Assembly: GCA_964022095.1 (NCBI GenBank)
Contig: CAXHZO010000021.1
Location: 1-39,064, forward strand
From: an uncultured Arcobacteraceae bacterium
Lineage (GTDB): Bacteria; Campylobacterota; Campylobacteria; Campylobacterales; Arcobacteraceae
Direction: 5' to 3'
DNA: 39,064 nt
In this document: positions 136 through 39,064 of the stretch, one piece after another
How the letters are laid out: each line of letters starts with the position of its first letter
Numbering within the stretch: the stretch's first letter is position 1
Translations under genes and position numbers: made by a program
The notes under the pieces: generated by a model
The model's database searches: none
Told to the model about the DNA's origin: nothing
The model's input: the letters and a program-made list of their open reading frames with translations, nothing else

Positions 136-1479
136 TTATCTTTCGTGTAGTGCGTTTGCTTTTGTTTTTAAAATAGGCTTTAAAATGAAGTCTAAAATAG
201 ATTTTTTTCCAGTGATAATATCAACTGTTGTTATCATTCCTGGAATAATTGGTAATTTATCACCATTTTTTTCTAAGTAGTTTTTATCTGTTTCTATTAC
301 TACTTTATAGTAACTTTCTTGGTCTTTATCATTTTTATCTACAATACTGTCTGCTGATATTTCTACAATCTTTCCATCTAAAGAACCATATATAGAAAAA
401 TCATAAGCTGTGATTTTTACAATAGCTTTTTGTTGTGGGTTAATAAATGCAATATCTTTTGGATCTATTTTTGCTTCTATTAATAAAGTATCACTTAGGG
501 GAACTATTTCTATTAAATCCATACCTGATTTTACAACTCCACCTACTGTATTTACATGAATAGTTTTTACAATACCATTTACAGGTGAGTGTAAAACTGT
601 TTTATCTAGCTTATCTTCATCTGCTACTAGTTTTGATTCATATTTTTTTATTTCAGTGTTTATTTTTTGTAGTTCATTTCTTGCTTCTGCTTTAAAAGTC
701 TTTAGTTTTTCTTCTACTTTCTTTTTAGCTTCTTGGATTGCGAACTTTGCTCTTGGAATTGAGACGTATGTATTTTGCAAGTCGCCTTGTAATTGTGTTA
801 GCTCTTTTCTAATTTTTAGGAGATCATTTTTTGATTTTGATCTTCTTGCAACTAGTTTTTCCATTGTTGCTTTTTCTTCTTTTACAAGTGTTATGCTTCT
901 TCTTAATTGGTAGCTTTGGCTGTTTAGCTCTTTTAATTCTTGTTCTTTTTGTTTGAGTTGTACTTTATAAATATCAAGTGTACTTTTGAGTTCTTCTATT
1001 CTTGAGTTAAAAAGCTTCAAATCATTTTGAGCAAATGATTGGGCATTTTTTAGTGTGTCTTGGGATACTTCTATTTTTGTTGGGATATTGTCTAACTCAA
1101 GTTTTGCTTCTACTTCTAATCTAGCTTTAGTAACTAGTAAGTGATAGTAAGTTTGCTTGTTTTCTTCAAGTGAAGCTTCAAATCTTGTAGTATCGATTTT
1201 CATCAATGCTTGTTGTGGTTGAACTTCATGTCCTTCTTTTACTAAGATTTCTTGAATCAAACCACCATCTAAACTTTGGATTGTTTTTATTTTCTCAGAT
1301 GGTATAACTTTACCCTCACCTCTAGTTAGTTCATCAACCTGTGAAAAATATGCCCAAACAAATGCTCCTATAAAAAATGCGAATATCAAAAAGAAAAAAA
1401 GTACTACTTTAGAGTTTGGTTGTGCATTTTTTTGTGAATGTAAAATATTTACAAAATTTAAATCATCATTACTTTTCAT
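136..1479 (-). CDS. HlyD-family type I secretion membrane fusion protein (LapC-like)
   Basis: N-terminal TM helix, then TRGEGKVIPS..IQSLDGG..ILVKEG, a long coiled coil, SPVNGIV, GGVV..G..LIEIVP, AYDFSIYG and IIPGM..VDI.TG.KS. Overlaps the ABC gene stop. Confidence 0.95.
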   Translation of the reverse strand: MKSNDDLNFVNILHSQKNAQPNSKVVLFFFLIFAFFIGAFVWAYFSQVDELTRGEGKVIPSEKIKTIQSLDGGLIQEILVKEGHEVQPQQALMKIDTTRFEASLEENKQTYYHLLVTKARLEVEAKLELDNIPTKIEVSQDTLKNAQSFAQNDLKLFNSRIEELKSTLDIYKVQLKQKEQELKELNSQSYQLRRSITLVKEEKATMEKLVARRSKSKNDLLKIRKELTQLQGDLQNTYVSIPRAKFAIQEAKKKVEEKLKTFKAEARNELQKINTEIKKYESKLVADEDKLDKTVLHSPVNGIVKTIHVNTVGGVVKSGMDLIEIVPLSDTLLIEAKIDPKDIAFINPQQKAIVKITAYDFSIYGSLDGKIVEISADSIVDKNDKDQESYYKVVIETDKNYLEKNGDKLPIIPGMITTVDIITGKKSILDFILKPILKTKANALHER

Positions 1480-3698: not shown

Positions 3699-5333
3699 TT
3701 ATTTTTTTTTGTAATATGCTCCTGGATATGAAGAACTAAACTCTTCTTTTAAATCCATTGCTTTTTGTTCTGTTGGGATATTATACAATACTAAAGTATG
3801 AGTTCCATTTGGATTTGTTACAATTTTCGATTTTACATCATCTTTTAAATTTAAATCTGCTTGCTTTGTAGTTAGATACTTGCTATATGATGAAGAGATT
3901 AAAAATATTGCATAATTATCATTTGTTAAAGATTCAGTTTGTGTTACTGCTTCTTCTGCCATCATTGTATTTTCTTCTAAAAGTTCTTGTACTGAAGTGT
4001 CTTCAGTAGTTGCACTTATATTTGAAGTTGTATCTGAACAACTATTTTGAGAAGAGTTTTTAATACTTTTTTGTAAGATTGAAGTATTTTTCAAGATATT
4101 GTAATATGCTAAATACATATCAAACTCTGTGTTTATTAAAGTGATGTTTGAGTTGTATAAATCTGCTTCTACATTTAGAACATCGATGAAGTTTCTTGTA
4201 CCTGCATCGAATTGATCTTTATAAATATCAATAATTGTTTTGTTTTCTTCAATAAACTTTTTTAACTCATTACTTTGTTTTATTGCTGTTTGATATGTAT
4301 TATATGAAACTGTTAACTCATCAAGTACTGTTTTTGTAGCTACATCAAGTTTTGCTTGAGCTTCTCTTAAGAATAGTTCTTCTCTGTCTGTTTTTGCTGA
4401 ATCTAACATACCATTAAAGATATTATATCTTAATTCGATTTTTCCACTGTATTGAGTAGTTTCTAAATCTTCTTCTAATAAATCTCTATCATATAAAGCT
4501 TGAAGTTTTAACTTTAGTGTTGGAAGGAAATTTGATTTTGATTGAGAAATTAAAGCTCTTTGAGAATCAATTGCTTTTATTTGCTCTTTAATTGTGTAAT
4601 TGTTTTTTAAAGCTATTTTATATAACTCATCAAGAGAAGACGGAATTAATGATTTGTCAATATCAGGTCTACAAAATGACTCATCTAGTTTCATCCCTAC
4701 GTTTTTGTTAAAAGAACTAATTGCTGAGTTTCTGTTATTCATGTCACCAAATAAATTGCTTTTTGCAGAATAAATTTTTGCTTTTGTTTGAACTTTATCT
4801 AAGATTTCACCATTTATTTCTTCTGTTTGTGTTGCAATTGATAAGTAATCTTCATGAACTGCTAAGTTGTCTTTTGAGGCTGCAATTCTTTCATCGAATT
4901 TTATGATATTTAAATATGCTGAAATAGAGTCATATAATATATTTTCTATATCTGCTGCATTTTTATATTTGTTTGATAAATAGTTTGATTTTGCTTCTTC
5001 TACTAAATTTGGTGTTAAGTTTCCATCATATAGCAGTTGTTCTAAATCTAGTTGAGCATTTCCACCCTTATAATCTGTAGTTGCGTCTATACCTGCTCCT
5101 GCATCATAGTCTAAATCTTCTTTCTTTTTTTCTAGATATGCTGTTAAGTCCAATTTTGGATAATATCCACTTTTTTGTTCATCTACATATTTTCTAAATG
5201 CTTCATTATTTAGTGTTTTAGATGCAATATCTTGATTATTTTCAATTGTATAATTTACAACATCCTTAACTGTTGTTGCATGTGTAAATGAAAATAATAA
5301 TGCCAATGTGGGAATACTATATTTAAGTCTCAT
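3699..5333 (-). CDS. TolC-family outer membrane protein of the T1SS (LapE/AggA-like) with C-terminal extension
   Basis: Signal peptide, SGYYPKLDL, QLLYDG, FLPTLKL, YNIFNG, QFDAGTRNFIDVLN. First gene of the T1SS operon. About 120 extra C-terminal residues. Confidence 0.92.
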   Translation of the reverse strand: MRLKYSIPTLALLFSFTHATTVKDVVNYTIENNQDIASKTLNNEAFRKYVDEQKSGYYPKLDLTAYLEKKKEDLDYDAGAGIDATTDYKGGNAQLDLEQLLYDGNLTPNLVEEAKSNYLSNKYKNAADIENILYDSISAYLNIIKFDERIAASKDNLAVHEDYLSIATQTEEINGEILDKVQTKAKIYSAKSNLFGDMNNRNSAISSFNKNVGMKLDESFCRPDIDKSLIPSSLDELYKIALKNNYTIKEQIKAIDSQRALISQSKSNFLPTLKLKLQALYDRDLLEEDLETTQYSGKIELRYNIFNGMLDSAKTDREELFLREAQAKLDVATKTVLDELTVSYNTYQTAIKQSNELKKFIEENKTIIDIYKDQFDAGTRNFIDVLNVEADLYNSNITLINTEFDMYLAYYNILKNTSILQKSIKNSSQNSCSDTTSNISATTEDTSVQELLEENTMMAEEAVTQTESLTNDNYAIFLISSSYSKYLTTKQADLNLKDDVKSKIVTNPNGTHTLVLYNIPTEQKAMDLKEEFSSSYPGAYYKKK

Positions 5334-24538: not shown

Positions 24539-25491
24539 TGAAAATATTAATTACAGGTGGAAGTGGTTTTATAGGTACAAGATTAATCGATGAGTTAATC
24601 AAAGAAGAAAGTCACGAAATTATAATATATGACAAAGTTAAAAGTGAAAAATATCCAGAATTATGTATACAAGATGATATTAGAAATGTTGATTCATTAA
24701 CGAAAGCTTGTGAAGGAGTAGAAGTTATCTATAACTTAGCAGCAGAACATGCTGATAATGTAACTCCTCAATCACTATATGCAGATGTAAATATAGGTGG
24801 TGCAGATAATGTTGTCCAAGCTGCAAAAGTAAATAATATCTCTAAAATTATATTCACTAGTTCTGTAGCAATCTATGGATTAAACAGAGGTACTCCGACA
24901 GAAGATATGGAAGCAAAACCTTTCAATGAATATGGTAGAACAAAATATGAAGCTGAAAAAATCTTTTTAGCCTGGCAAAAAGAAAATGAAAATAACAATC
25001 TTCAAATAGTAAGACCAGCTGTTGTATTTGGAGAAAACAATAGAGGGAATGTTTATAATCTGATAAATCAAATTTCTACAGGAAAGTTTGCAATGATAGG
25101 AGATGGACTAAATAAAAAGTCTATGGGATATGTAGGAAATATTGCTAAGTTTTTATGTGAACTAAAATCTTCAGAAAAAACATTAGATATATTTAACTTT
25201 GCAGGAAAAGGGGATCTTAGTACTAAAGAAATAGTAGAAATAGTAAGAGATGAATTATCTATAGAAAAACCTTTTCCAAAAATTCCATATTGTGTTGGAA
25301 TAATAGGTGGTACAATGCTTGATATTTTATCAAGTATCACAGGCAAAAAATTCCCTGTAAGTAAAGTAAGAGTTCAAAAGTTTGCAGCTGAAACTACAGT
25401 TTCTACAAAGCATCTATTTGAAAGTGGATTTAAAGAAGCCTATAGTTTAGAAGATGGTCTTAGAGCTATGATAAGATATGAATTTAATTAA
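24538..25491 (+). CDS. gnu: GlcNAc-P-P-undecaprenol 4-epimerase (Gnu-like)
   Basis: LAAEHADNVTP.SLY.DVN, FTSSVAIYGLN, PFNEYG, FGENNRGNVYNL, KSMGYVGNI and ITGKK..VS.VRV.KF match my recollection of E. coli O157 Gnu. Confidence 0.8.
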   Translation: MKILITGGSGFIGTRLIDELIKEESHEIIIYDKVKSEKYPELCIQDDIRNVDSLTKACEGVEVIYNLAAEHADNVTPQSLYADVNIGGADNVVQAAKVNNISKIIFTSSVAIYGLNRGTPTEDMEAKPFNEYGRTKYEAEKIFLAWQKENENNNLQIVRPAVVFGENNRGNVYNLINQISTGKFAMIGDGLNKKSMGYVGNIAKFLCELKSSEKTLDIFNFAGKGDLSTKEIVEIVRDELSIEKPFPKIPYCVGIIGGTMLDILSSITGKKFPVSKVRVQKFAAETTVSTKHLFESGFKEAYSLEDGLRAMIRYEFN

Positions 25492-27346
25492 ACAATTTTA
25501 AGTAAATTCTTTTATATAAACTCCTATTGAATCTTTCTTCTGTGATAAATACTTGTGGCCAGCACAAAGAAAGATTCTTTTTATTTTTTATTCTATATGC
25601 TAATAACACATCTATATTTGTTTTTTGACTATAAACTTCAAATATTAATTTTGCATGATTATTACTTATAATTATATCTTCTATTAATTTCTTTATTTTA
25701 GTACTCTTTACATTTTTTAAAGCACTAATTAAAAATTCATTAGTCTTTTCAAAATCTTTTATAGAAAAAAAATCTTTTAAGTTTCTATATAAAAATCTCT
25801 TACCTTTAAAGCCAGCTGCTCTCTTTATGTATTTTAATCTTTTTTGTTCAAAATTATTGCGCCAATATTTATAATATTTTTTAATATAAACTTTTGAACT
25901 ACCAAATATTTTATAATACTCATTTTCAAGTTCCTCAAATGATTTATTTGGATTATTAAAAGATTGAATTAAAATATATCTAGTTATACCAGAAAAACTC
26001 CAATCATCAAAATTATAAGAACTATCATAATCTAATCCTAATATATTTGTATTATTAAAAACCTTAAATCTATCATATATATATTTTTCATGCCCCATAG
26101 GCAATCCAATATCATCGTTAAAATCATTCGGTCTTATAAAAACTTTTTTTAAACCTTTTTTTTTCCATTCATCTAAATCTTTTTTTATTTCTTTTGGTAA
26201 ATCACCAAATTTAGGAACAAAGCCTAAGATAATATCATCTTTTAAGATTTTTTTTGTAGGAGGATACCTATAATCACTATATGCATAAGCTATTAATTTT
26301 GAATCAGGATTAAATTTCTTTGATTTTTCTAATAACCTATTCCAAAAAAATATATATCTATCCGTTTTAGATTTTTTTTGAAAATCTTTATACCTATCAT
26401 CTTCTGAATCATGTAATCGACAGAATTCACAAGTACAATATCCTCGAGAATCATTTATGGTTGCATTATAAATATTCCTATTATATTGGGTATATACTTT
26501 TCTCCAATTTTCTACAATTTGATTTTGAAGATTTTCATTTGATATACAAAATTTCTGTCTACTTGCATCTAATAAAGGGAATCCTTCAACTCCTCTTTTA
26601 TTGCTTTCTGATAAAGAAAACCATTCAGGTTTTTTTTCCCCATATTTATTCCAGAACTTTCTGAAAGCATGACCATAAGAGGGCTTTGAAGAAATATGTA
26701 ATTTCATTCTTCTCTTCCAGAGTAAATCATCCTGCATATATTTTATTACATCTGATTTAGAATAGATTAGCTCTTTTGGAGTATATTTATTCATCTGTAG
26801 TTTCTTTACAAGTTTATTATATCTCCATATATCATTTCTAAATACAGTAAAATTGTAATTTGAATTCCAAGAAAAAGATTTATTAATTAATTTTAAATTT
26901 TTTATTTTCTTATATATTATCCCCTCATCTTTTGGTTTAACCCATCTAATTCCTAATTCATTATATAAAAAATCATATACAGAAAAAAGTGTTCCTACTT
27001 TATTTCTCATAAATAATACAGTTTCTAACTCAGTATTTTTTTTCTTCATAATTTCATCAATACCATATAAATATACCTTATTATCTTCTATTAAATAGTT
27101 AGACATTGAATCTATTTTAAAGTTTTTTTTTGGAGTTTTACCAATATAAAATACATATTTACCATCTGTTTTCAATGATGATATTAGAACTTTTTTATCT
27201 AATACTAATTCTAAATGTTTCTTTAATTCATTGGCAGCAAATTTTTTTATAAAATCTGCATTTGGATCTACAATAATTGTTACATTTTGACTATAGTTAG
27301 AAAACAATAATGAAACAGTAACAAGTAAAATTGATATAACTTTCAT
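25484..27346 (-). CDS. Secreted DUF4838-family protein (putative carbohydrate-active enzyme)
   Basis: Signal peptide, FAANELKKHL, GTLFSVYDFL..ELGIRW, HAF..PEWF, FCISN, ND..GYCTCEFC, DRY..FWN, AYAYSDYRYPP. Confidence 0.72.
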   Translation of the reverse strand: MKVISILLVTVSLLFSNYSQNVTIIVDPNADFIKKFAANELKKHLELVLDKKVLISSLKTDGKYVFYIGKTPKKNFKIDSMSNYLIEDNKVYLYGIDEIMKKKNTELETVLFMRNKVGTLFSVYDFLYNELGIRWVKPKDEGIIYKKIKNLKLINKSFSWNSNYNFTVFRNDIWRYNKLVKKLQMNKYTPKELIYSKSDVIKYMQDDLLWKRRMKLHISSKPSYGHAFRKFWNKYGEKKPEWFSLSESNKRGVEGFPLLDASRQKFCISNENLQNQIVENWRKVYTQYNRNIYNATINDSRGYCTCEFCRLHDSEDDRYKDFQKKSKTDRYIFFWNRLLEKSKKFNPDSKLIAYAYSDYRYPPTKKILKDDIILGFVPKFGDLPKEIKKDLDEWKKKGLKKVFIRPNDFNDDIGLPMGHEKYIYDRFKVFNNTNILGLDYDSSYNFDDWSFSGITRYILIQSFNNPNKSFEELENEYYKIFGSSKVYIKKYYKYWRNNFEQKRLKYIKRAAGFKGKRFLYRNLKDFFSIKDFEKTNEFLISALKNVKSTKIKKLIEDIIISNNHAKLIFEVYSQKTNIDVLLAYRIKNKKNLSLCWPQVFITEERFNRSLYKRIYLKLFN

Positions 27347-27350
27347 TTAT

Positions 27351-28505
27351 TTACTTAAATATTGATATAAATAATCTTAATGGTCTAATTATATAATATA
27401 AGATATTAGTTTTTTTCGATAGATTAATAAAATATATATCATAATGTGTTGGCTTGAAAATTGATGATAAAAAATACTTCACACTATCAAATTTTGAGTC
27501 TTGAAGTTTTGATATTGATAAAAACTTTTTTAAAATTTGCTTCTTTTGTATTTTTATTTTACTTTCATAAAAATGCTCATTATTTATACTTTTGAAAATA
27601 TCATTTAAAACTATATCGAAATTTTGGTACATTTTTATTTCATTATGTATTAGTTGATCTAATTTTGTTTTATATAAACTATTACTAATAAGTAAACCTA
27701 ATAAAAACATATTTCTTACTTTTAATTTTTTAGATAACTTTAATAAATCTTCCCAATTGATTTTATATTTATTTATAATCCTATCTACATCTGTAATCCA
27801 CTCTACTCTTTCCCATAAATGCTTTGAACCATGAACACATAAATATAATAAATATAAATTAATATCTAGTGTCTTAATATTTTGAGAATTTAAATTTATA
27901 TTCGAAATATTTTCCCATATACTATATTGATCAAAATTATCATTTATCAATTTTCTAAATAATTTCCAATGTAATTCTATGTGAATATTATTATTAGTAA
28001 ATAAACTACAGTCACTTCCTACTTCCAATAATGCTTCATTTTTTAATATTGCTAAATCCAAGTCTACTTTATATTTATTTAAATTTAAAACTTTTACTAC
28101 CTCATAAACGTTACTGTCTTTAACTAATAAATCCAAATCACTATACTGCCTAGAAACTATGTCTCCGTAAGCCAACTGTGACAAAGTAGGACCTTTAAAA
28201 GATATCACTTCTATATTGTTTTCTTCTAATAGTTTTGTGATTTTTACTAATTCTGCTGTCATTAACATATTTTGCTTGAGGATTTGTAGTTTTTTTAGTT
28301 TCATTATATTTAGCTTATCACTTGGTACTAAAATATCATAATCTTTAAGAGTCTTATATACTAAAGGAAATAATCCATGACACATCGCTATATATATAAA
28401 ATTATCCCAGTCTTTTATCTCTTTTATAAGATTCTTTATAGTATTTAAGTCTTTGATTTCTTTGCTACACTCTATAATAAGTAATATATTTGAATTAGTT
28501 ATCAC
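27351..28505 (-). CDS. NTP_transf_5 (PF14907-type) nucleotidyltransferase, as in phosphorylated lasso-peptide clusters
   Basis: W..F...A..HG..PL.Y, FKGPTLSQLAYGD...RQYSDLDLLV, IELHW, YLCVHGSKH.W....W..D. GTG start. Confidence 0.85.
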   Translation of the reverse strand: MITNSNILLIIECSKEIKDLNTIKNLIKEIKDWDNFIYIAMCHGLFPLVYKTLKDYDILVPSDKLNIMKLKKLQILKQNMLMTAELVKITKLLEENNIEVISFKGPTLSQLAYGDIVSRQYSDLDLLVKDSNVYEVVKVLNLNKYKVDLDLAILKNEALLEVGSDCSLFTNNNIHIELHWKLFRKLINDNFDQYSIWENISNINLNSQNIKTLDINLYLLYLCVHGSKHLWERVEWITDVDRIINKYKINWEDLLKLSKKLKVRNMFLLGLLISNSLYKTKLDQLIHNEIKMYQNFDIVLNDIFKSINNEHFYESKIKIQKKQILKKFLSISKLQDSKFDSVKYFLSSIFKPTHYDIYFINLSKKTNILYYIIRPLRLFISIFK

Positions 28506-28674: not shown

Positions 28675-30045
28675 ATCACTAATATAATACTATGCGGAGG
28701 AAGTGGTATAAGACTATGGCCAATAAGTAGAACACTTATACCAAAACAATTTGTAAAATTGTTCAATGAAAAATCTTTATTCCAACTAACTGTTCAAAGA
28801 AACTCAAGTGTTTGTGATAGTCAATTTATTGTTTCAAATGCTGAACAATACTTCTTAGCTCTTGATCAACTTGAAGAGCTTAATAAAACTAATAATAAAT
28901 ACCTTTTAGAACCAGTAGGAAGAAATACTGCTCCTGCTATTGCCTTAGCTTGTATGCAATTAGATTATGATGAAATAGTTCTTGTTACTCCTAGTGATCA
29001 CTTAATTAAAAATGAAACACAGTATGCAAAGGTTTTAGAAAAAGCTAAAGATATGGCAAATGATAATAATCTTGTAACATTTGGTATTACTCCTACATTT
29101 GCTGAAACTGGATTTGGTTATATTGAAACTGTAAATACATATGATGTAAAAGCTTTCCATGAAAAACCTGATTTGCAAACTGCTACTTCATATTTAGAAG
29201 CTGGAAATTACTATTGGAACTCTGGTATGTTTATGTTTAAAGCAGGAGTATTTTTAGATGAACTAAAAAAACACTCTCCTGAAATATTTGATACATCAAA
29301 ATTAGCTTTAGAAAACTCTTCAAAAGATGATATTACTAGAATCAAACATGATGATATGATGAGTATTCCTGAAGATAGTATTGATTATGCTGTAATGGAA
29401 AAATCAAATATAGTAAAAGTAGTACCTAGTGATATAGCATGGAGTGATGTTGGAAGCTTTGATGCACTATATGAAGAGTTACCACAAGATAAAAATGGTA
29501 ATACAGTAAATCCTAATCATGTATCAATAGATAGTAAGAATAATCTTATTTATGGAAATCAAAGAAAAATTGCAACTGTAGATGTAGAAGATATGATAAT
29601 AGTAGATACAGGAGATGCACTATTAATATCTAAAAAAGGAAGTTCACAAAAAGTTAAAAAAGTAGTAGCAGAAGTTAGAAAGAATTCTGAACTACATAAT
29701 ATACACTTAACTGGACATAGACCTTGGGGAACATATACAGTGCTTGAAGACTCTGTAGGATATAAGATAAAAAGAATAGAAGTAAAACCAGGGAAGAGAC
29801 TGAGTTTACAAAAGCATTATCATAGAAATGAACACTGGATAGTAGTAAGCGGAACTGCAACAGTAACAGTAGGTGATAAAAAACAGTATATAAGACCAAA
29901 TGAATCAACATATATAAAAATGGGAGAGCTTCATAGGTTAGAGAATGAAGGAAAAATTCCAGTTGTTTTAATAGAAGCTCAAGTTGGTGAGTATACTGGT
30001 GAGGATGACATTGTTAGGGTTAGCGATGATTTTAAGAGGAGTTAA
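28675..30045 (+). CDS. manC: Mannose-1-phosphate guanylyltransferase/mannose-6-phosphate isomerase; homology extends to an ATC codon at 28675
   Basis: The frame upstream of the TTG at 28759 reads ITNIILCGGSGIRLWPISRTLIPKQF. Downstream motifs: LLEPVGRNTAPA, PSDH, WNSGMF, SIDYAVME, WSDVGS, cupin RPWG..LSLQKHYHRNEHW. RBS AAGGAG at 28662-28667. Confidence 0.92.
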   Translation: MTNIILCGGSGIRLWPISRTLIPKQFVKLFNEKSLFQLTVQRNSSVCDSQFIVSNAEQYFLALDQLEELNKTNNKYLLEPVGRNTAPAIALACMQLDYDEIVLVTPSDHLIKNETQYAKVLEKAKDMANDNNLVTFGITPTFAETGFGYIETVNTYDVKAFHEKPDLQTATSYLEAGNYYWNSGMFMFKAGVFLDELKKHSPEIFDTSKLALENSSKDDITRIKHDDMMSIPEDSIDYAVMEKSNIVKVVPSDIAWSDVGSFDALYEELPQDKNGNTVNPNHVSIDSKNNLIYGNQRKIATVDVEDMIIVDTGDALLISKKGSSQKVKKVVAEVRKNSELHNIHLTGHRPWGTYTVLEDSVGYKIKRIEVKPGKRLSLQKHYHRNEHWIVVSGTATVTVGDKKQYIRPNESTYIKMGELHRLENEGKIPVVLIEAQVGEYTGEDDIVRVSDDFKRS

Positions 30046-30302
30046 TCTTTTTTGATTAACCCTTTTTGCTCCAAGGCTTCGCAAAAATTTTGAATATCTA
30101 CTTCTAACTGTTCTTTTGGTACTTCGTACTTAGTAGATAACTCTTCTATAAGTTTATCTTTTGGTGTATTTTTTGAGATGTGTTCCCAGATATCTTTTCC
30201 TACTTCATTTATAGAAAAATACTCTTGTGTATTTGTATCTAAAATGATCACTTCATCATCTACCTCTTGGATAAATACTGTACTTGGTATTGTGTAATTC
30301 AT
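30042..30302 (-). CDS. PqqD-family RiPP recognition element (lasso B1-like peptide chaperone)
   Basis: 86 aa with the RRE pattern EVDDEVIILD....YFSINEVGKDIW....LIEELSTKYEV..EQLEVDIQNFCEALEQKGLI. ATGA overlap with the kinase stop. Confidence 0.9.
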   Translation of the reverse strand: MNYTIPSTVFIQEVDDEVIILDTNTQEYFSINEVGKDIWEHISKNTPKDKLIEELSTKYEVPKEQLEVDIQNFCEALEQKGLIKKD

Positions 30303-31159
30303 TTTGTTTCCTTTTGATGTGATATTATTGATTTGTATACTTCTTCTAATCTATTTTTATCCCATGGAATAATTATATTATATACTTTTAGTTTGTTTGC
30401 TATTGTTGATAGTTTATCAAATCTTGACTGAGTATTTACTCTTAGGTCTATATCTGTAGCATATCTTAGGGCAGTAAATTTTTCTATACCTTTGATTTCT
30501 GATATGTTTATTTCACTATTTTGAGGTGATTTTATTAGATTATAAATACTGTTTATTTCACTTGTTCTTTCTTGGAAATTTTGCGTATAAAGACCTAGAT
30601 CTTCTACTTTTCTGTATGGTCTATGATATGGATATGAAGGTACAGCTATGACTTTGTCTTCATCTAAGTATGTAGCTACTTTATCATCTGATATCATAGT
30701 ATGATTTTTTTTGATAAAAAAATCTGTGAGTGTGGATTTTCCACCAAAAGAGTTTGCTATAAATAACACTGCTTTATCTTCTATATTAACAGCTCCACCA
30801 TGTATATAATAGTACTTGTTTTCAATAGTTAATAAAATAGGTAAAAAAGTATGAGTAAGCCAATAGTTCACTAACTCATGAGTACCATTTTTATGTAGTT
30901 TATAATATATAATATCACTTGAAATATTTGCCCAAAATGTAACTACATCTTGTACATCAAAAAATATTTTTTGATTTTTTTGAAGATTATCAAAAGATTT
31001 ATCACTAGTGATTGAGACTTTTCTGTATTGGTTGTTGTTTAGATAAAGTATCTGTGTAGTATCAAAATCAAAAGAATCATCTCTTTTGATTTGATATGTG
31101 TTTTTTTTAGCTTTTTTTAGCTCATCTGTATAGACTAAATTATAGCCGTAGGCGTACAT
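30299..31159 (-). CDS. HPr-kinase-like P-loop kinase (lasso peptide kinase-like)
   Basis: IHGGAV....AVLFIANSFGGKSTL.......MISDD gives the His, Walker A and DD pattern of the HPrK catalytic domain. Start directly abuts the peptide stop (TAGATG). Confidence 0.82.
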   Translation of the reverse strand: MYAYGYNLVYTDELKKAKKNTYQIKRDDSFDFDTTQILYLNNNQYRKVSITSDKSFDNLQKNQKIFFDVQDVVTFWANISSDIIYYKLHKNGTHELVNYWLTHTFLPILLTIENKYYYIHGGAVNIEDKAVLFIANSFGGKSTLTDFFIKKNHTMISDDKVATYLDEDKVIAVPSYPYHRPYRKVEDLGLYTQNFQERTSEINSIYNLIKSPQNSEINISEIKGIEKFTALRYATDIDLRVNTQSRFDKLSTIANKLKVYNIIIPWDKNRLEEVYKSIISHQKETK

Positions 31160-31369
31160 CTATTTTCCGAAAAGATTATATGCATCGCCTCTATCGTTAC
31201 CTGTGTTAGGATTTGTAGTACCATCGTTTGGTGTTTCAGATCCACCACCTACAAAACTTCCAGCAGCTGCTTTTGAAGGATTTGTAATTTGTCCTAATGC
31301 AATAACAGTTGGAACTGTATATGCAGCCTTTTTAAGAAATTCTCTTCTTGATTGTGTTTTTTTATCCAT
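31160..31369 (-). CDS. 69-aa putative RiPP-like precursor with twin-arginine signal and lasso-type leader motif
   Basis: RBS GGAG (31377-31380) and TATAAT (31399-31404) upstream. SRREFLK, YTVPTVIALG, SKAAA then a Gly/Ser/Thr/Asn/Asp-rich tail. First gene of the kinase-RRE operon. Confidence 0.8.
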   Translation of the reverse strand: MDKKTQSRREFLKKAAYTVPTVIALGQITNPSKAAAGSFVGGGSETPNDGTTNPNTGNDRGDAYNLFGK

Positions 31370-31471
31370 GTGTTCGCTCCATAAATTTGTATTATTGTAT
31401 TATAACTTAATTTATTACAATTTTACCTTAGAAAGAGTTTAAAAATTATACAAAAGATTATTTTCATTATT

Positions 31472-31495
31472 TTGTAATCAAATTGTAATTTTTAT
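31472..31495. promoter_or_regulatory. Candidate regulator site (TTGTAA direct repeat, 11-bp period), copy 2
   Basis: ttgtaatcaaattgtaatttttat, 22/24 identical to 5459-5482. Confidence 0.5.
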
Positions 31496-31564
31496 GCATA
31501 TTATATTTGATGTTTTATAACATACTATGTTATTATAAGCAATTATATTTAAAAAAGGGAGCAG

Positions 31565-32371
31565 ATGCGAAAGATAGTATTAAACACTTTTTTATTATTT
31601 AGTATATTTTTACTAAGTGGGTGTTCATTAAAAGACTACAAGCTTTTCCAAGCAGAAAAAGTTGAGGAAGAAAAAGCTACTGTGATTACAGATACACAGT
31701 ACTTAAAAGATGTAAAGTTTGAATACAAGGTTCAAGCAAATGATAGATTATCTATCACTGTTTATGTACAGTCAGGAAAAGGTTCTCAACAGATGTCTTC
31801 AATGCTAACTACAAGATCAGACAGTAGTATCACAAACTCTGATGATGAAATTGGTATTTTAGTAACACAACAAGGAACGGTAAGACTACCACTTCTTGGA
31901 AGTGTGGAAGTTGTTGGATTAACAGAAGATGAAGTTTCTGAGAAACTAATATCACTATACAAAAAATATATAAGAAATCCTTATGTAATAACAGAAATCA
32001 AAAATCAAAGAGTTACTGTGATTGGTGAAGTTAAAAAGCCAGGTGTAGTAACAGTTACAAATGGAACATTGAACCTAATAGAAGCTATAGCTCAAAGTGG
32101 AGACTTAACAGACTTGGCTGAGAGAAATAATATCAAAATCATTAGAGGGGATCTGCGAAATCCTGATGTAAGAACTATAGATATCACTGATGTAACTGCA
32201 TTAAATGAATCTAGTTTACATTTAAGACCTAATGATATTATATATGTACAACCAAGAGCACTTAAAGGTATAAATAAAGCCTTTGATGAAATCAGTCCAT
32301 TTTGGAATATGTTAACAAGTATTCTTAATCCATTCGAAAAAAGAGTTAATATCTTAAATGGTGGCGACTAA
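31565..32371 (+). CDS. wza: Polysaccharide export outer-membrane lipoprotein (short OPX)
   Basis: Lipobox LLSGC, Poly_export motif Y.VQ.ND.LSI..G.VRLPLLG.V.V.GLT, SLBB VTVIGEVKKPG..NLIEAIAQSGDL, LRPNDIIYV. Confidence 0.9.
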   Translation: MRKIVLNTFLLFSIFLLSGCSLKDYKLFQAEKVEEEKATVITDTQYLKDVKFEYKVQANDRLSITVYVQSGKGSQQMSSMLTTRSDSSITNSDDEIGILVTQQGTVRLPLLGSVEVVGLTEDEVSEKLISLYKKYIRNPYVITEIKNQRVTVIGEVKKPGVVTVTNGTLNLIEAIAQSGDLTDLAERNNIKIIRGDLRNPDVRTIDITDVTALNESSLHLRPNDIIYVQPRALKGINKAFDEISPFWNMLTSILNPFEKRVNILNGGD

Positions 32372-34716
32372 TGGACACAAACAAAATACACAATGATGAA
32401 ATAGATTTAAAGGATTTATTTAAAACTGTTTTAAAATATAAATATATTATCGCACTTTTTGCGATAATATTTGCTTTTGGGTTTGCGTATTATGCATATA
32501 CAAAACCAAGTATCTACTCTTCTTATGCAACAATAGAGCTACAAGAAGAATCAAATGGATGGAACTCTGATGATGCCTTAAAAAAAGCATTTAGTGGTGG
32601 TAGTGTAAATGTAGAAAATCAAATAGAGATTTTTAAATCAAAATCTCTTCAAACAAAAGCTACAAAATTTTTAAATCTTGGGACTAGATACTTTACAGTA
32701 AAAAATCATAGAACTCATGAGTTTTATTTAAACTCACCTTTTGTAGTAGTAGATAAAATAATAGAAAATCCAATTTATGGGAAAAAATTTTTCTTGACTC
32801 CTATCGATGCAGATTCTTTTAGATTAGAAATAAGACCTATTTCTAAATACTCTAAAAGAGGTTTATTTGCTATGACAGGAATAAAGCCATATAATAAAGA
32901 AGAACTTATTACATATAATGAGGTTCATAAATATGGTGAAGATATATCAAATGAGTGGTTCAGTTTAAATATCAAAAAATTAACAACACTAGAAAATGAA
33001 GAGTATAGTTTCTCTTTTGTACATCCAGCTGCTCAATCTAATGTTTATTTTAATGGTCTTTCTGTAGGCCAAGTTTCAGAACTAGCATCTATAGTTAGAG
33101 TTTCTATTTTAGATAGTGTTTCTTTAAGAGCTAAAGATTTATTAAATAGTTTATTTAAAGCTTACTTAGAACAAGAAGTACAAAGAAAAAGTGAAGTTGC
33201 AAACTTATCTTTGGCTTTTATAGATGCTCAATTAGATGAGATTAATAAAAGACTAAAAAAATCTGAAACAAGTTTAGAAACATATAAAGAGACAAATGAT
33301 GTAATAAGCTTATCTGATAAAGCAAATACAATTTCTGAAAAACTAGTAGAATATGAATCAAAGCTTCAAGAACTAGGAATAGAAGAAAATATATTAAGTA
33401 ATTTATATCAATTTATTAGTAAAAACCAAAACTTATCTGGTCTTACAGTTGGTTCAGTAAATTTTGCAGATCCTGCACTTGCAAATCTGATAAAAAATCT
33501 TCATGAAATGGCAACTCAAAAAGAATCTCTTCTTATTGACTATACTGAGTTACATCCTGATGTTGAAAAACTAACTAAAACTATTGCATCTCTTAGACGA
33601 CAGATTATTGCTTCTTTAAAAAGTAATTTAAATCAAATTAATCAAAGAAAAAAATCTTTAAATAACTTAGTATACAAATATAAAAAATCTATAGAGACTC
33701 TTCCTAAACAAGAAAGAGAATTAACTAGACTTTCGAGACACTTTAATGTTAATGAAAAAGTATACTCATTTTTACTAGAAAAAAGAGCTGAAACGGCTAT
33801 TTTAAAATCTTCTACTATTTCAAATGCTAGAATCTTAGATGAAGCAATAAACTTCAGCCAAGCTGTTAAACCAAAAAGAGTTTTAATAGTACTTGTAGGA
33901 ATAATCTTAGGTGTGATATTTGGACTTGCATATGCATTTTTAAGAGAGTTTTTCAATAATACAATTAAAAATACAGATGAAATAGAAAAATATAGTGAAA
34001 TACCAATTTATGGAGTTGTGCCTTTTAATAAAAATAAAAAAACTGATAATATATTTGATGAGGCCTTTAGGTCTATTAGAACAAATCTTCAGTTCTTACC
34101 ACAAAATGAATCAAGTAGAATTATAAGTATTACATCATCTGTTTCTGGTGAAGGTAAAACAACTATTGCTGCTAAGCTTTCTAAGATTATTAGTCAAACA
34201 AATAAGAAAGTGATTATTTTAGATTTAGACTTAAGAAAAGCAAGTATCCATAAAGAGTTTGATATACCAAACAATATAGGTATTAGTAACTTTTTAACTG
34301 GTCAAAATAAGCTAGAAGAAGTTATCAAAAAAACTGAAAATAGCTTAGTAAATGTTATAACTACTGGTCCTTTACCTCCTAATCCTTCTGAGTTAATATT
34401 AACTGATGAGCTTAAGAATATGTTAGAAGAGTTGAAAAAAGTTTATGATTATATTATCATTGATACTCCTCCTGTAGGATTAGTAACTGATGCACTTATA
34501 TTAATGAACTTCTCTGATATTACATTTACTGTTGTTAGAGCTAACTATACAAGAAAAGAGTTTATTAAAAACCTTGATAGACTTGCAAAAGAGCACTCTC
34601 ACAATCATATTGGAATGATTTTAAATGGTGTTGAGATTGGTGATAAATATGGTTATGGTTATGGTGTAAGCTATGGCTATGGTTATGGAAATGGCAAATA
34701 CTACAAAAACAGATAA
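32371..34716 (+). CDS. wzc: Polysaccharide co-polymerase / BY-kinase
   Basis: DEIDLKDL, two TMs, YTELHPDV, EAFRSIRTNL, Walker A SGEGKTT, DLDLRK, IIDTPP, C-terminal tyrosine cluster YGYGYGVSYGYGYGNGKYY. Confidence 0.95.
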   Translation: MDTNKIHNDEIDLKDLFKTVLKYKYIIALFAIIFAFGFAYYAYTKPSIYSSYATIELQEESNGWNSDDALKKAFSGGSVNVENQIEIFKSKSLQTKATKFLNLGTRYFTVKNHRTHEFYLNSPFVVVDKIIENPIYGKKFFLTPIDADSFRLEIRPISKYSKRGLFAMTGIKPYNKEELITYNEVHKYGEDISNEWFSLNIKKLTTLENEEYSFSFVHPAAQSNVYFNGLSVGQVSELASIVRVSILDSVSLRAKDLLNSLFKAYLEQEVQRKSEVANLSLAFIDAQLDEINKRLKKSETSLETYKETNDVISLSDKANTISEKLVEYESKLQELGIEENILSNLYQFISKNQNLSGLTVGSVNFADPALANLIKNLHEMATQKESLLIDYTELHPDVEKLTKTIASLRRQIIASLKSNLNQINQRKKSLNNLVYKYKKSIETLPKQERELTRLSRHFNVNEKVYSFLLEKRAETAILKSSTISNARILDEAINFSQAVKPKRVLIVLVGIILGVIFGLAYAFLREFFNNTIKNTDEIEKYSEIPIYGVVPFNKNKKTDNIFDEAFRSIRTNLQFLPQNESSRIISITSSVSGEGKTTIAAKLSKIISQTNKKVIILDLDLRKASIHKEFDIPNNIGISNFLTGQNKLEEVIKKTENSLVNVITTGPLPPNPSELILTDELKNMLEELKKVYDYIIIDTPPVGLVTDALILMNFSDITFTVVRANYTRKEFIKNLDRLAKEHSHNHIGMILNGVEIGDKYGYGYGVSYGYGYGNGKYYKNR

Positions 34717-35514: not shown

Positions 35515-38500
35515 TTATATATTCTCGACTACTATATCTTTATCAATTAGTAAAGTCAATACTTGATTATCAGTTCCTACTGCTGTATATGCAATATAAG
35601 AATCATCACTTAAATCAACTGAATTGTTTAAATCTGTGTCATTTGTGTCTTTTGACCAAGTTGATAAATCTAGTTTGATAGTATCATTGTCTTCACCTTT
35701 AATACTTAGTATATTAGCTGAGTCTTCTGATACCATAGCTTGGAAATCTTCTATTGTAAGATTAGATAAAATATGCTCACTTGAAGATAAATCTAAAGAA
35801 TCAATATCAGATAAATCAAAACTTGATGCAGTATTATCTAAAATACTTGCTAAATCTATATCTTGAGTATTAAAGAATAAATTACCTTCATCATCTAATG
35901 AAATAGCTTCACTCTCATCACTACTATCAATAACATACGTTTCAGTAGATCTACCAAGGAATAACCCAGAGCTATCAGTAGTTGTATAATCGAACTCTAC
36001 TTCAATATCCGTTAATCCAGTAAATGCATCTAGGTATGTTGATAATATTGTATATTCTCCTGTATTCTCATCGATACTTACTATATCTTCTGCTATTGTT
36101 GAGTCTACATTTACTTCTATTGATACTTCACCTAAGGCTTCATCTACTGTTATGATTTCTTGTAGTTTATTCATTACAGATGCAAAGTCCATATAGTTTA
36201 TTAAGCTTGGATTATTTGTTAGTAATGTTTGAATTTGTAATCTTATTGGTTCTGCTTGCATTAATAAATTTGGATCTAGTGACATTAGTTCTGATATTTC
36301 TATATTATTATCTGCTGTTATTGTTTTTACTAAATCTTTTAATCCTGTTGTATTATCCATAAATTGACTTGTTAAGTTATACAGTTCTATTAAATCATTT
36401 AAGTTTTGTTCTGTTGCTAGTGTTTGTAGTAACTCTATATCTGATGCTATTAAACTTGAGTTATTTACTATTGATGTTTTATTTGCTACTACGAAGTCTT
36501 TGATTAATACTATTCCACCTAATGCATTTGGATTAGCGTTATAGAAATCTCTTAGATCAGCATATACTTCTTTTGAAGTTTCTATTGTATCTTCACTTAA
36601 AGTTAATAATCCCATTATATTACCTGTAGTTACATAATCTAAGAATACTGGTTTTATTTCATTTACTGCATCTACTACTTCTTGTGTATTTATATCTACT
36701 AATGAACTTATACTATTTATTCCACTTATTGTCGCTGTTACACTTACTGTTGTTGGGTCTAAAGAGAATAATATTGGTGATTCAAAACTTACAATACCAG
36801 AATATGGTGCACTTTCTCCTGTTGTATTAAATACTTCAGTAGATCTACCAAGGAATAACCCAGAACTATCAGTAGTTGTATAATCGAACTCTACTTCTAT
36901 ATCTGTTAATCCAGTAAATGCATCTAGGTATGTTGATAAGATTGTATATTCTCCTGTATTCTCATCGATACTTACTATATCTTCTGCTATTGTTGAGTCT
37001 ACATTTACTTCTATTGATACTTCACCTAAGGCTTCATCTACTGTTATGATTTCTTGTAGTTTATTCATTACAGATGCAAAGTCCATATAGTTTATTAAGC
37101 TTGGATTATTTGTTAGTAATGTTTGAATTTGTAATCTTATTGGTTCTGCTTGCATTAATAAATTTGGATCTAGTGACATTAGTTCTGATATTTCTATATT
37201 ATTATCTGCTGTTATTGTTTTTACTAAATCTTTTAATCCTGTTGTATTATCCATAAATTGACTTGTTAAGTTATACAGTTCTATTAAATCATTTAAGTTT
37301 TGTTCTGTTGCTAGTGTTTGTAGTAACTCTATATCTGATGCTATTAAACTTGAGTTATTTACTATTGATGTTTTATTTGCTACTACGAAGTCTTTGATTA
37401 ATACTATTCCACCTAATGCATTTGGATTAGCGTTATAGAAATCTCTTAGATCAGCATATACTTCTTTTGAAGTTTCTATTGTATCTTCACTTAAAGTTAA
37501 TAATCCCATTATATTACCTGTAGTTACATAATCTAAGAATACTGGTTTTATTTCATTTACTGCATCTACTACTTCTTGTGTATTTATATCTACTAATGAA
37601 CTTATACTATTTATTCCACTTATTGTCGCTGTTACACTTACTGTTGTTGGGTCTAAAGAATAGATAAGAGCTTCTTCTTTTGTAATTGCACCTACTTCAG
37701 AATCTGCTGAATCATCTAAAATAACTTGTGTAGAATAATTAGTACTAATTGTACTTAGTTGTTCTTCAACTGTCTCAATTTTTTCTTCAATCTCTCTTGT
37801 AACAACTTGTACTTTTACTAAATCTTCTAAAGATTCAAGTGTACTTGAACTATTATTAGTAGCTTGAGATATTGCAGAGTTTGTATTTGAAATAATATTA
37901 ACTAACGATGCCACTCCAGTAGTACCTAAGAAATCTACTGCTGTATGACTACTATCAATATTAGTAAATGTGTTGTTAATTAAGTCTTCTAAAATATCAT
38001 CAATAGATGACATTGTTGAGCTATTTGTAATTAGTAGTTTTGCAAACTCTTCAGATGCAGCAATATAAGCTTCTTTTTTAGTTGCATATCCTGCACTTAC
38101 AGCCGCAGCTGCTATTTGAGAAACTGCATTTTCAATCATTATATTCATAGTTTGTAATTGAATATACGCATCTATTTCAGTTTGATTTGTTGTATTTAAA
38201 GATGATTCAATTGGATCTGAAAGAAGATCTATTGAAGAAGGTACATTAAGTACATTTTGAATTAATGTTTCTGCTTGTGCTTGAGTTAAACCTTCAGCTA
38301 TTAAATTTACAACAAGTGTTGTTGTTGGGTTTAATACAGATTCATTTGATAAAGTTTTATATTGTCCATCAAAATCAAGTCCTGTTGAGATATCAATACC
38401 TCCCTCACCAATAATTGTACCACTCGCACTAGGTTCTAAACCATATTCACCTGCATAGTTAGTTAAAGTATTAGCTTCACCTGAATCTAAAATTCCATCA

Positions 38501-39064
38501 TTATCTGTATCTGCAAATACTGTCATACCTGAGATATAACCATCAATACTTGTTCCAGAAATTGATTCATCCGCGCCTGTTACTGTTACACTTACTGTTC
38601 CTGTATTACTATTTTCTGTTCCATCATTTGCTACTACTTGGAAGCTTACTTCTGTATTATCTGTTGAGCTCATTGAGTCAAACTCTGTGCTATAGATAAA
38701 GAAGTCACCTACATTTACATTTGTTAATCCAAAGTTTGTAATATCTGTTTGTGTTAATTGAATTACTCCATTTACATTACTTGTTACATCTGTTCCATTT
38801 AACACAAAGTTTGAGCTATCTGTTATTAATGAAATACTTAATCCATCATTTACATCTACATCACTTACACCTAATGCTGCGTATACATCTGCTTCACTTA
38901 CTACATAGTATGCATTTTCCATTCCTGATAGTGTTAAGAAGTCATCTTCACTTAAGCTTGACAGTGTTGCTGTTGTATTTGCTATTACTGGTGCATCATT
39001 ACTTCCAGTTACTGTTACACTTACTGTTCCTGTATTACTATTTTCTGTTCCATCATTTGCTACT
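35515..39064 (-). CDS. C-terminal part of a giant repetitive T1SS-type surface adhesin (VCBS/cadherin-like repeats); 5' end outside the window
   Basis: The frame stays open from 38922 to the window edge (VANDGTENSNTGTVSVTVTGSNDAPVIANTT..SGMENA). Acidic, Cys-free sequence. DGYISG..VFADTDNDGILDSGE Ca-binding-like motif. C-terminus IDL..LDL..LSIKGEDNDTIKL..W..Y..Y..LLID resembles T1SS substrates. Confidence 0.85.
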   Translation of the reverse strand, partial: VANDGTENSNTGTVSVTVTGSNDAPVIANTTATLSSLSEDDFLTLSGMENAYYVVSEADVYAALGVSDVDVNDGLSISLITDSSNFVLNGTDVTSNVNGVIQLTQTDITNFGLTNVNVGDFFIYSTEFDSMSSTDNTEVSFQVVANDGTENSNTGTVSVTVTGADESISGTSIDGYISGMTVFADTDNDGILDSGEANTLTNYAGEYGLEPSASGTIIGEGGIDISTGLDFDGQYKTLSNESVLNPTTTLVVNLIAEGLTQAQAETLIQNVLNVPSSIDLLSDPIESSLNTTNQTEIDAYIQLQTMNIMIENAVSQIAAAAVSAGYATKKEAYIAASEEFAKLLITNSSTMSSIDDILEDLINNTFTNIDSSHTAVDFLGTTGVASLVNIISNTNSAISQATNNSSSTLESLEDLVKVQVVTREIEEKIETVEEQLSTISTNYSTQVILDDSADSEVGAITKEEALIYSLDPTTVSVTATISGINSISSLVDINTQEVVDAVNEIKPVFLDYVTTGNIMGLLTLSEDTIETSKEVYADLRDFYNANPNALGGIVLIKDFVVANKTSIVNNSSLIASDIELLQTLATEQNLNDLIELYNLTSQFMDNTTGLKDLVKTITADNNIEISELMSLDPNLLMQAEPIRLQIQTLLTNNPSLINYMDFASVMNKLQEIITVDEALGEVSIEVNVDSTIAEDIVSIDENTGEYTILSTYLDAFTGLTDIEVEFDYTTTDSSGLFLGRSTEVFNTTGESAPYSGIVSFESPILFSLDPTTVSVTATISGINSISSLVDINTQEVVDAVNEIKPVFLDYVTTGNIMGLLTLSEDTIETSKEVYADLRDFYNANPNALGGIVLIKDFVVANKTSIVNNSSLIASDIELLQTLATEQNLNDLIELYNLTSQFMDNTTGLKDLVKTITADNNIEISELMSLDPNLLMQAEPIRLQIQTLLTNNPSLINYMDFASVMNKLQEIITVDEALGEVSIEVNVDSTIAEDIVSIDENTGEYTILSTYLDAFTGLTDIEVEFDYTTTDSSGLFLGRSTETYVIDSSDESEAISLDDEGNLFFNTQDIDLASILDNTASSFDLSDIDSLDLSSSEHILSNLTIEDFQAMVSEDSANILSIKGEDNDTIKLDLSTWSKDTNDTDLNNSVDLSDDSYIAYTAVGTDNQVLTLLIDKDIVVENI
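35941..37659. repeat. Near-identical 825-bp tandem duplication (35941-36765 and 36835-37659; offset 894 bp)
   Basis: Both copies encode the same 275 aa (SLDPTT...LGRSTE) and are separated by a 69-bp spacer. Identical shadow ORFs at 36180 and 37074. Confidence 0.97.
38579..39064. repeat. Adhesin tandem repeat unit with 429-bp (143-aa) period
   Basis: 38579-38635 is identical to 39008-39064 (57 bp, cut off by the window edge). Confidence 0.85.

Follow-up and report, generated by a model that had tools for sequence, protein, structure and literature searches.

The 39,064-nt contig CAXHZO010000021.1 (assembly GCA_964022095.1, uncultured Arcobacteraceae bacterium), which we analysed as a whole and call the window, encodes a 69-residue peptide directly upstream of the genes for an HprK-like kinase and a discrete RiPP recognition element (RRE; RiPP, ribosomally synthesized peptide that is modified post-translationally). 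The peptide gene is real and conserved, and its family comprises 276 clusters at 50% identity. The peptide is probably the substrate of the kinase/RRE cassette. Its leader combines a twin-arginine motif with an RRE-binding motif of the type known from lasso peptides, and from the sequence of this leader we lean towards export by the twin-arginine translocation (Tat) system. We give about an even chance to the whole chain, in which an RRE-dependent pathway would turn the peptide into a linear product that is first phosphorylated (possibly phosphoglycosylated) and then exported by Tat. For this locus we observed sequence features, gene linkage and residue conservation, and it is from these that we infer the biochemical steps set out below.

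Leader and core of the precursor family

The original prediction had read positions 31262-31369 as a Tat signal superimposed on a lasso-type RRE-binding leader. This interval corresponds to residues 1-36, the first 36 codons of a 69-codon open reading frame (ORF) on the minus strand. In the translation, SRREFLK is present at residues 7-13 and PSKAAA at residues 31-36, exactly as had been described. The features of the gene are as follows. Here and below, papers given by PMC number are cited for those parts of their text that were available.

31160-31369, minus strand: precursor peptide gene, 69 residues; ORF translation MDKKTQSRREFLKKAAYTVPTVIALGQITNPSKAAAGSFVGGGSETPNDGTTNPNTGNDRGDAYNLFGK
31377-31380, minus strand: ribosome-binding site GGAG, 7 nt 5' of the ATG, read from the sequence
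31331-31351, minus strand: twin-arginine motif S7-R-R-E-F-L-K13, from the translation; RR in 172/172 homologues
31292-31321, minus strand: Y17-x-x-P20-x-V22-x-x-x-G26, RRE-binding motif of the lasso/LPP type (LPP, Linear Polyphosphorylated Peptides) inside the h-region of the signal, from homologue counts; motif definition from PMC13381572
31262-31270, minus strand: A34-A35-A36, predicted signal peptidase I site with putative cleavage after A36, from the small residues at +26 and +28
31163-31261, minus strand: predicted core, residues 37-69, with S38 (31256-31258) as candidate phosphorylation site

The close homologues (n = 24) were 62-75% identical to the peptide. A profile search of 1.84 billion representative proteins returned 276 representatives at E ≤ 1e-3 (clusters at 50% identity), and all but one of the 150 family matches listed were 46-141 residues long. 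Motifs were counted in 172 small homologues drawn from the close set and the profile-search set. With positions numbered from the RR, the counts were:

RR: R-R in 172/172
+3: F in 168/172
+4: L in 153/172
+5 and +6: K and K, in 168/172 each
+9: Y in 166/172
+12: P in 167/172
+14: V, I or L in 165/172
+18: G in 158/172
+23: P in 150/172
+26: small residue (-3 of the cleavage site) in 160/172
+28: small residue (-1 of the cleavage site) in 158/172

The family consensus is RRxFLKKAAYxxPxVxxLGxLxxPxxAxA, followed by a core with nothing in common past +28; across the family, a leader with hardly any variation precedes a hypervariable core. An alignment of homologues for joint conservation of RR and YxxP had been proposed as a check of the dual reading, and both motifs proved to be kept. 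The position-for-position alignment of residues 17-32 with the lasso leader YxxPxLxxxGxxxxxT held in part. The spacing of Y17, P20, V22 and G26 is conserved, whereas the final T-to-S match (S32) is not conserved and lies at -5, not at -2, of the predicted cleavage site. The column equivalent to the lasso Thr at -2 (+24) was mixed (V 39, T 35, A 24 and S 23 of 172), and the +25 column held K in 29/172.

On the core side of the predicted junction, S38, F39 and G41 were invariant in 25 close homologues and G37 and E45 varied. The GGG after the AxA site was kept only among close relatives. In the family at large, a Ser was found within 3 residues of the AxA site in 125/171 members. The peptide ends in FGK and has no C-terminal Ser, and its gene is single-copy in its own genome. 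Six family clusters that we looked up were named 'hypothetical protein' in the databases or carried no name.

RNA-labelled library contigs from two studies (X10/X15; X16) span the peptide gene at 95-99% identity. This cover is a weak hint of expression, though such libraries can hold DNA. Because the contigs stop at differing points (31269, 31325 and 31360), no transcript start can be claimed, and stretches that they leave uncovered carry no information. In a scan of positions 29900-31700, promoter-like sites numbered 9 where 11.3 were expected, and no terminator was found.

Three further observations concern the family and its profile. A subfamily from Gammaproteobacteria and Vicinamibacteria (L036, L059, L061, L062 and L065) carries LTLKAAPS where ALGxL would stand, and its cores are rich in His and Gly; no kinase or RRE lies within the fetched flanks. 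A 2928-residue protein (P0037) contains ten stretches that match positions 24-51 of the peptide profile and may be a repeat protein built from a junction-like segment. The profile also matched weakly the N-termini of 440-1105-residue ORFs in relatives, which we read as Tat signals.

The kinase and RRE cassette

Three genes next to or near the peptide gene make up the putative modification machinery:

30299-31159, minus strand: HprK-like P-loop kinase, 286 residues (Pfam Hpr_kinase_C 7.9e-6, below the cut-off)
30042-30302, minus strand: discrete RRE of the PqqD family, 86 residues (PF05402, 9.2e-18)
27351-28505, minus strand: NTP_transf_5 nucleotidyltransferase, 384 residues (PF14907, 1.2e-52)

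The stop codon of the peptide gene is followed at once by the ATG of the kinase gene, which in turn shares 4 nt with the RRE gene. This arrangement suggests a single operon of three genes with coupled translation. The NTP_transf_5 gene is parted from the cassette by manC (28759-30045, plus strand), and it directly follows the RRE gene in related loci, e.g. L019, L021 and L027. The original prediction had overlooked the kinase, the NTP_transf_5 gene and the closest known system, the LPP clusters (lppA-K-B-S-D-N) of Bacillota (Popov et al., Nat Commun 2026, PMC13381572). LPP clusters sit in capsule loci and yield a linear peptide. Their HprK-like kinase LppK polyphosphorylates Ser3 of the core, and their leader carries YxxPxV and is cut by a SipW-like signal peptidase only when the RRE presents it (PMC13381572).

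The kinase residues H120, G140-K141-S142 and D158 were invariant in 31 homologues. A profile of these 31 sequences aligned to the HprK/P catalytic core (2qmh/1jb1, 3.6e-7), and the alignment spans the invariant His, the GKS loop and the Asp. The RRE profile matched the lasso RRE TbiB1 best (5v1u, 5e-22), followed by PbaB1 (9x90), TfuB1 and LppB (9x8z). D69 of the RRE was invariant in 33 sequences, and D69 and F73 align with D70 and F74 of LppB. In the crystal structure of LppB, D70 hydrogen-bonds the leader Tyr and F74 packs on the Pro, and in PbaB1, whose leader partner carries Trp, the Asp is replaced by Gln (PMC13381572). We looked for covariation of leader W/Y with RRE Gln/Asp; the two W-type leaders found (L078, L089) had no RRE within 8 kb.

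Modelling of the RRE with the leader had also been proposed as a check. A complex model of the RRE with peptide residues 1-44 scored 0.58, and the best of three controls scored 0.02. Contact agreement between runs was at least 96% and the pLDDT of the partner at least 55. In the calibration, 58 of 80 solved complexes and 2 of 110 mismatched pairs reached the mark, and scores of 0.60 or less included 7 of the 80 solved complexes and both passing mismatches. The model thus lends weak support to binding of the leader YxxP motif by the RRE.

The RRE match invites the reading of the peptide as a true lasso precursor with a Gly37-Glu45 ring, made by enzymes encoded elsewhere. The YxxPxVxxxG spacing fits such a leader, G37 and E45 would give a nine-residue ring, and the closest relative of the RRE is TbiB1. 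Against this, a B2 peptidase of the Transglut_core3 family (PF13471) had no match in the 99.99%-complete genome, and phmmer found no B2 homologue. There was no Asn-synthase cyclase in the window. The sole Asn-synthase gene of the genome lies on another contig (C6); its score over the full Pfam model (2.7e-84) is like that of an ordinary AsnB, and its likeness to lasso cyclases is weak. G37 and E45 are unconserved in close homologues, and so is the position of the -2 Thr. A lasso precursor with distant enzymes can practically be dismissed. With no B2, no cyclase in the window and no conserved -2 Thr, the peptide is not a lasso peptide, and the lasso frame of the original prediction was wrong. 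What stands of its overall reading is the peptide as likely substrate of an RRE-dependent cassette, with the two motifs jointly conserved and the Asp and Phe of the RRE kept.

Two neighbouring genes deserve mention. manC has a TTG start and its Pfam match begins at profile position 30, which may mean a shortened or mis-called N-terminus. Immediately beyond the NTP_transf_5 gene lies a gene for a 620-residue DUF4838 protein (25484-27346, minus strand) with a hydrophobic, signal-like N-terminus.

Loci with and without twin-arginine leaders

RiPP pathways normally encode their own leader peptidase and exporter. The original prediction held that Tat and signal peptidase take the place of these proteins here. 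A comparison of loci that carry RR-type leaders with loci that do not provides the strongest indirect support for this idea. We retrieved 53 peptide loci with an RR-containing pattern, mostly from Campylobacterota and also from Gammaproteobacteria, Thermodesulfobacteriota, Bacteroidota and Vicinamibacteria. A kinase homologue was present in 40/53 loci, directly downstream of the peptide gene in 32/53; an RRE was present in 33/53 and NTP_transf_5 in 19/53, and 10/53 had two or three peptide genes. The commonest other neighbours within 7 kb of the peptide gene were Wzc-like (21 loci) and Wza proteins (18 loci). A B2 protein was found in 0/53 loci and a lasso-type ABC (ATP-binding cassette) protein in 3/53. 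A lasso-like cyclase was found in at most two, as fragments in L040 and as a distant weak match in L019.

The comparison was then anchored on the kinase, which occurs in 17 of 401 genomes of the phylum, its own genome counted. At 8 of the 17 strong kinase places outside the own genome, an RR-type peptide lay within 1.5 kb. Eight of the remaining kinase places were extended for gene content. Five of these eight, all from Campylobacterota (L091-L095; genomes G401, G317, G379, G382 and G297), were complete lasso clusters with an ABC exporter, a Transglut_core3 B2, the kinase, an Asn-synthase cyclase and an RRE. Candidate YxxP or WxxP leaders without RR were found in L090, L091 and L093. In loci with RR and AxA in the leader, then, there is no dedicated peptidase and rarely a dedicated exporter; in loci without such a leader both are present. 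This is the pattern to be expected if Tat and signal peptidase stand in for B2 and exporter.

One locus contains both types. In L098 (G336:C1:352000-371000), an RR-leader peptide gene with its kinase adjoins an ABC-B2-kinase-cyclase-RRE lasso cluster, and the two have just one RRE between them. LPP and lasso clusters are reported to lie side by side in a similar way in Paenibacillus. The candidate precursor of L091 ends in a PSDPGGW-like sequence, as do many RR-leader linear peptides of Sulfurovum-type loci, and this shared tail hints that the linear family arose from lasso precursors. Other neighbours in Sulfurovum-type loci (L024, L032 and similar) were a rhomboid protease (8 loci), Laminin_G_3 proteins (10 loci) and unannotated families of 267 residues (15 loci) and 126 residues (8 loci).

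The leader itself consists of SRREFLK, 18 uncharged residues (A15-S32) and an AxA site. With this build, the peptide would be expected to be exported by the general Tat system and trimmed by signal peptidase I. Genes for TatA, TatB and TatC are present elsewhere in the genome, and its single S26 signal peptidase is encoded on contig C3. The best 13-mer of the h-region has a Kyte-Doolittle mean of 1.28; for 14 plausible Tat signals encoded in this genome the values run from 1.25 to 2.09. The earlier caveat of a short, weakly hydrophobic h-region is thus fair, yet not disqualifying. The strict motif [ST]RRxFLK occurs in just one other ORF of the genome. The NCBIfam Tat model TIGR01409 matched 47/72 family members at E ≤ 0.1 (best 2.7e-4).

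Several observations weigh against modification followed by Tat export. The h-region lies at the bottom of the Tat range of the genome and contains a Pro and several polar residues. The peptide itself scores 13.4 bits with TIGR01409, under the cut-off of 16.7, and Pfam reported no family for it at E ≤ 0.1. The conservation of RR is in part ascertainment, because the profile behind the 172/172 count rewards RR and the pattern used for the 53 loci contains it. The RRE gene is missing from 20/53 loci. Since at least five loci with ample flanks (L036, L059, L061, L064 and L065) have the peptide without a kinase, the leader can exist without an adjacent cassette. In genome G119, three kinase and RR-peptide pairs (L102, L104 and L105) share one RRE in the 54 kb fetched, which suggests an RRE acting in trans. 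The pass of the complex model may be memory, because similar RRE-leader complexes have been solved. The kinase-anchored sample is small and its genomes are related. Finally, the analogy with LPP is incomplete, because the signal-peptidase-I-type enzyme of LPP needs the RRE to present its site (PMC13381572), an aid that a periplasmic LepB could not use.

Some of these observations would be accounted for if the sequence were a RiPP leader only. RRxFLKK would then be a second recognition element, for the kinase or the nucleotidyltransferase, and no working Tat signal; the peptide would stay in the cell or leave by another route. The score under the Tat-model cut-off and the weakly hydrophobic, Pro-containing h-region fit this explanation, and RiPP leaders often bear more than one recognition stretch. 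However, the conserved RR, F, L and K, about 18 uncharged residues and a small-x-small site at fixed spacing make up a cleavable Tat signal, and almost two-thirds of the family members tested match the Tat model. A pure leader also leaves unexplained why RR-leader loci lack B2 and seldom have a lasso-type ABC protein when their non-RR sister loci have both, and why orphan copies exist without any cassette. We consider a leader without Tat function unlikely.

The converse is that the sequence is a signal peptide only: an ordinary small family secreted by Tat or Sec, with YxxPxV...G as an inherited quirk of the h-region and with the RRE and kinase acting on something else. The orphan members, which have no kinase within at least 5 kb, and the RRE-less loci point in this direction, as do the lasso-leader models, which matched just 2/72 family members. 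But a near-invariant signal peptide beside a hypervariable mature part is rare. The peptide gene lies directly upstream of the kinase gene in most of the 53 loci, here with genes that abut or overlap, and the cassette offers no other candidate substrate. The RRE retains the residues that contact Tyr and Pro, and the complex model, weak as its support is, stands well above its controls. Moreover, YxxP occurs in none of the 14 other plausible Tat signals of the genome (by manual reading of the list). We give this explanation little credence.

The same pathway could also be routed through Sec, with the RR incidental to the choice of translocon. The basic residue of the c-region, which would serve 'Sec avoidance', is unconserved (the K at +25 noted above). 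Sec signals are documented on bufferin precursors (PMC12452194) and lipoprotein signals on DAG-RiPPs (PMC13056109). On the other hand, the RR is found throughout the family in the full S-R-R-x-F-L-K context. The hydrophobicity is low for a Sec signal and in line with the Tat signals of the genome, and an ATP-dependent modification in the cytoplasm before export would suit the post-translational Tat system better. Sec routing therefore seems quite improbable to us, and we retain Tat as the favoured route.

Proposed pathway, known relatives and genomic surroundings

The locus is probably a Gram-negative counterpart of the LPP clusters of Bacillota. The likenesses to LPP (PMC13381572) are the following. 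In both systems the precursor is short, with YxxPxV conserved in its leader and with a hypervariable core, and it is accompanied by an HprK-like kinase, a discrete RRE that has the Asp for binding Tyr, and an uncharacterised NTP transferase (LppN and PF14907 being compared by description). Both lack a cyclase, lie in a capsule or exopolysaccharide locus and have kinase-bearing lasso clusters as relatives. In both a Ser is close to the leader/core junction, and the leader is removed, here by prediction, by signal-peptidase-I-type chemistry.

There are also differences from LPP (PMC13381572). The cassette here has no SipW-like peptidase (S) and no MsbA-like exporter (D). SRRxFLKK precedes the motif here and AxA follows it, whereas the LPP consensus is YxxPxVLxHQxIxFETxxS, with only YxxPxV in common; the rest of the leader beyond YxxPxV is here IALGQITNPSKAAA. 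The Tyr stands at -20 here and at -16 in LPP, and the host is a Gram-negative member of the Campylobacterota, not one of the Bacillota. The cassette thus shares A, K, B and N with LPP but fails two of its defining features as described in that paper, namely the S and D genes and the leader outside YxxPxV. The authors call LPP restricted to Bacillota, and the words 'Tat', 'Gram-negative' and 'Proteobacteria' do not occur in the main text of the paper as available (PMC13381572). Neither a SipW-like peptidase nor an MsbA-like exporter was found in the window, the distant type I secretion system described below apart, and neither is among the annotated neighbour families (20 of the 25 commonest neighbour clusters).

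The following pathway would fit these data. Judging from the aligned contact residues and the complex model, the RRE (30042-30302) would bind the leader through Y17xxP20xV22. It would present the peptide to the HprK-like kinase (30299-31159), which, by analogy with LppK and Ser3, may phosphorylate a Ser at the junction, with S38 as the candidate. An extension of the phosphate by the NTP_transf_5 protein (27351-28505) may follow, like that by PsmN in pseudomycoidin. The Tat system would then export the peptide, and signal peptidase I is predicted to cut after A36. Sequence and comparative genomics suggest that these two general systems would replace the SipW-like peptidase and MsbA-like exporter of LPP as well as the B2 and ABC proteins of lasso clusters. 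The mature peptide of 33 residues would have its place of action in the periplasm or envelope, linked in some way to the export of polysaccharide by Wza/Wzc.

A more ambitious version joins all of these elements. The Tat signal would itself be the RiPP leader, and the RRE, docked on the YxxPxV motif within the h-region, would mask it in the manner of a chaperone until the kinase and nucleotidyltransferase had built the phosphate or phosphoglycan on Ser38. Tat and LepB would then bring the mature peptide to the periplasm for its role with Wza/Wzc. The delivered phospho(glyco)peptide might serve, for example, as primer, anchor or regulator of exopolysaccharide export. We put this joint version forward tentatively and doubt that it is correct in every part.

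Other known systems resemble parts of this pathway. Among lasso peptides, paeninodin (PadeK) and pseudomycoidin (PsmK/PsmN) are phosphorylated or phosphoglycosylated (PMC8498205). They too have an HPr-kinase homologue that acts on a linear precursor, a B1-type RRE and a YxxP leader, and in pseudomycoidin a nucleotidyltransferase adds hexoses to the phosphate. Unlike the present peptide, they are threaded lassos that come with B2, C and D proteins and whose target is a C-terminal Ser (PMC8498205). Bufferins (Sec; PMC12452194, PMC11626156) and DAG-RiPPs (lipoprotein; PMC13056109) resemble it in that a general export signal replaces the classical leader and the dedicated exporter and peptidase. 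The general Sec or lipoprotein route for RiPP precursors was reported recently and called highly unusual (PMC12452194). In contrast to the present system, with its Tat-type signal and a lasso-type RRE motif in the h-region, they use MNIO enzymes with DUF2063-type partners and Sec or lipoprotein signals (PMC12452194, PMC13056109), and no specific RRE motif is reported within those signals.

The chaperone-like role proposed for the RRE has its parallel in Tat export itself. The Tat proofreading chaperones TorD, DmsD and NapD bind Tat signal peptides, and the likeness, by analogy only, is that a cytoplasmic protein would hold the signal peptide until maturation ends. Their fold is unrelated to the winged helix-turn-helix of the RRE, and their clients are cofactor enzymes, not peptides. 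The NCBIfam 'HPr-rel-A system' pairs an HprK-like kinase with a PqqD-like protein near polysaccharide genes. The kinase scored 17.3 bits with TIGR04352 (HprK-related kinase A), whose equivalog cut-off is 200. The RRE had no match at E ≤ 0.1 to TIGR04353, which we take to be the partner PqqD model of that system. The cassette is at best a sister group of it.

In our literature search we found no paper that ties a Tat-type leader occurring in nature to a cassette with an RRE or HprK. A twin-arginine/RiPP match, PMC5686179, is in its available text an engineered phage-display system, and the RRE-Finder papers do not mention HPr kinase, nucleotidyltransferase or twin-arginine. Should the more ambitious version hold, the peptide would become the first natural RiPP routed through Tat, and one that is widespread. 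A modification machine and the Tat translocon would read one and the same short sequence one after the other, which raises the question of how the two readings are ordered. The discovery of LPP would extend from Bacillota to Gram-negative phyla, and the HprK-like/PqqD/NTP_transf_5 gene sets of polysaccharide loci would gain a candidate substrate.

The cassette is surrounded by a polysaccharide locus, which takes up the rest of the 39-kb contig and includes glycosyltransferases, Wzx, Wzy and a PHP phosphatase. The genes flanking the peptide gene and those of a type I secretion system (T1SS) at the far end of the window are:

31565-32371, plus strand: Wza, divergent from the peptide gene, conserved context
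32371-34716, plus strand: Wzc-like protein, divergent from the peptide gene, conserved context
136-1479: HlyD protein of the T1SS
1469-3685: ABC protein of the T1SS, with a C39-like domain
3699-5333: TolC-like protein of the T1SS

The original prediction had stated that neither a B2 peptidase nor a peptide ABC exporter is encoded. This is accurate for B2 in the whole genome and for an exporter in the cassette, but the window does hold the ABC protein of the T1SS (1469-3685). The C39-like domain of this protein has no Cys before residue 99, and it is probably an RTX-type transporter and not a peptide exporter. We consider the T1SS unlikely as exporter of the peptide: it is 26 kb away, it lacks the early C39 Cys, and the GGG after the AxA site is unconserved beyond close relatives. 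The probable substrate of the T1SS is a giant acidic protein encoded at 35515-39063, whose two long repeats seem identical and whose gene is cut off by the end of the contig.

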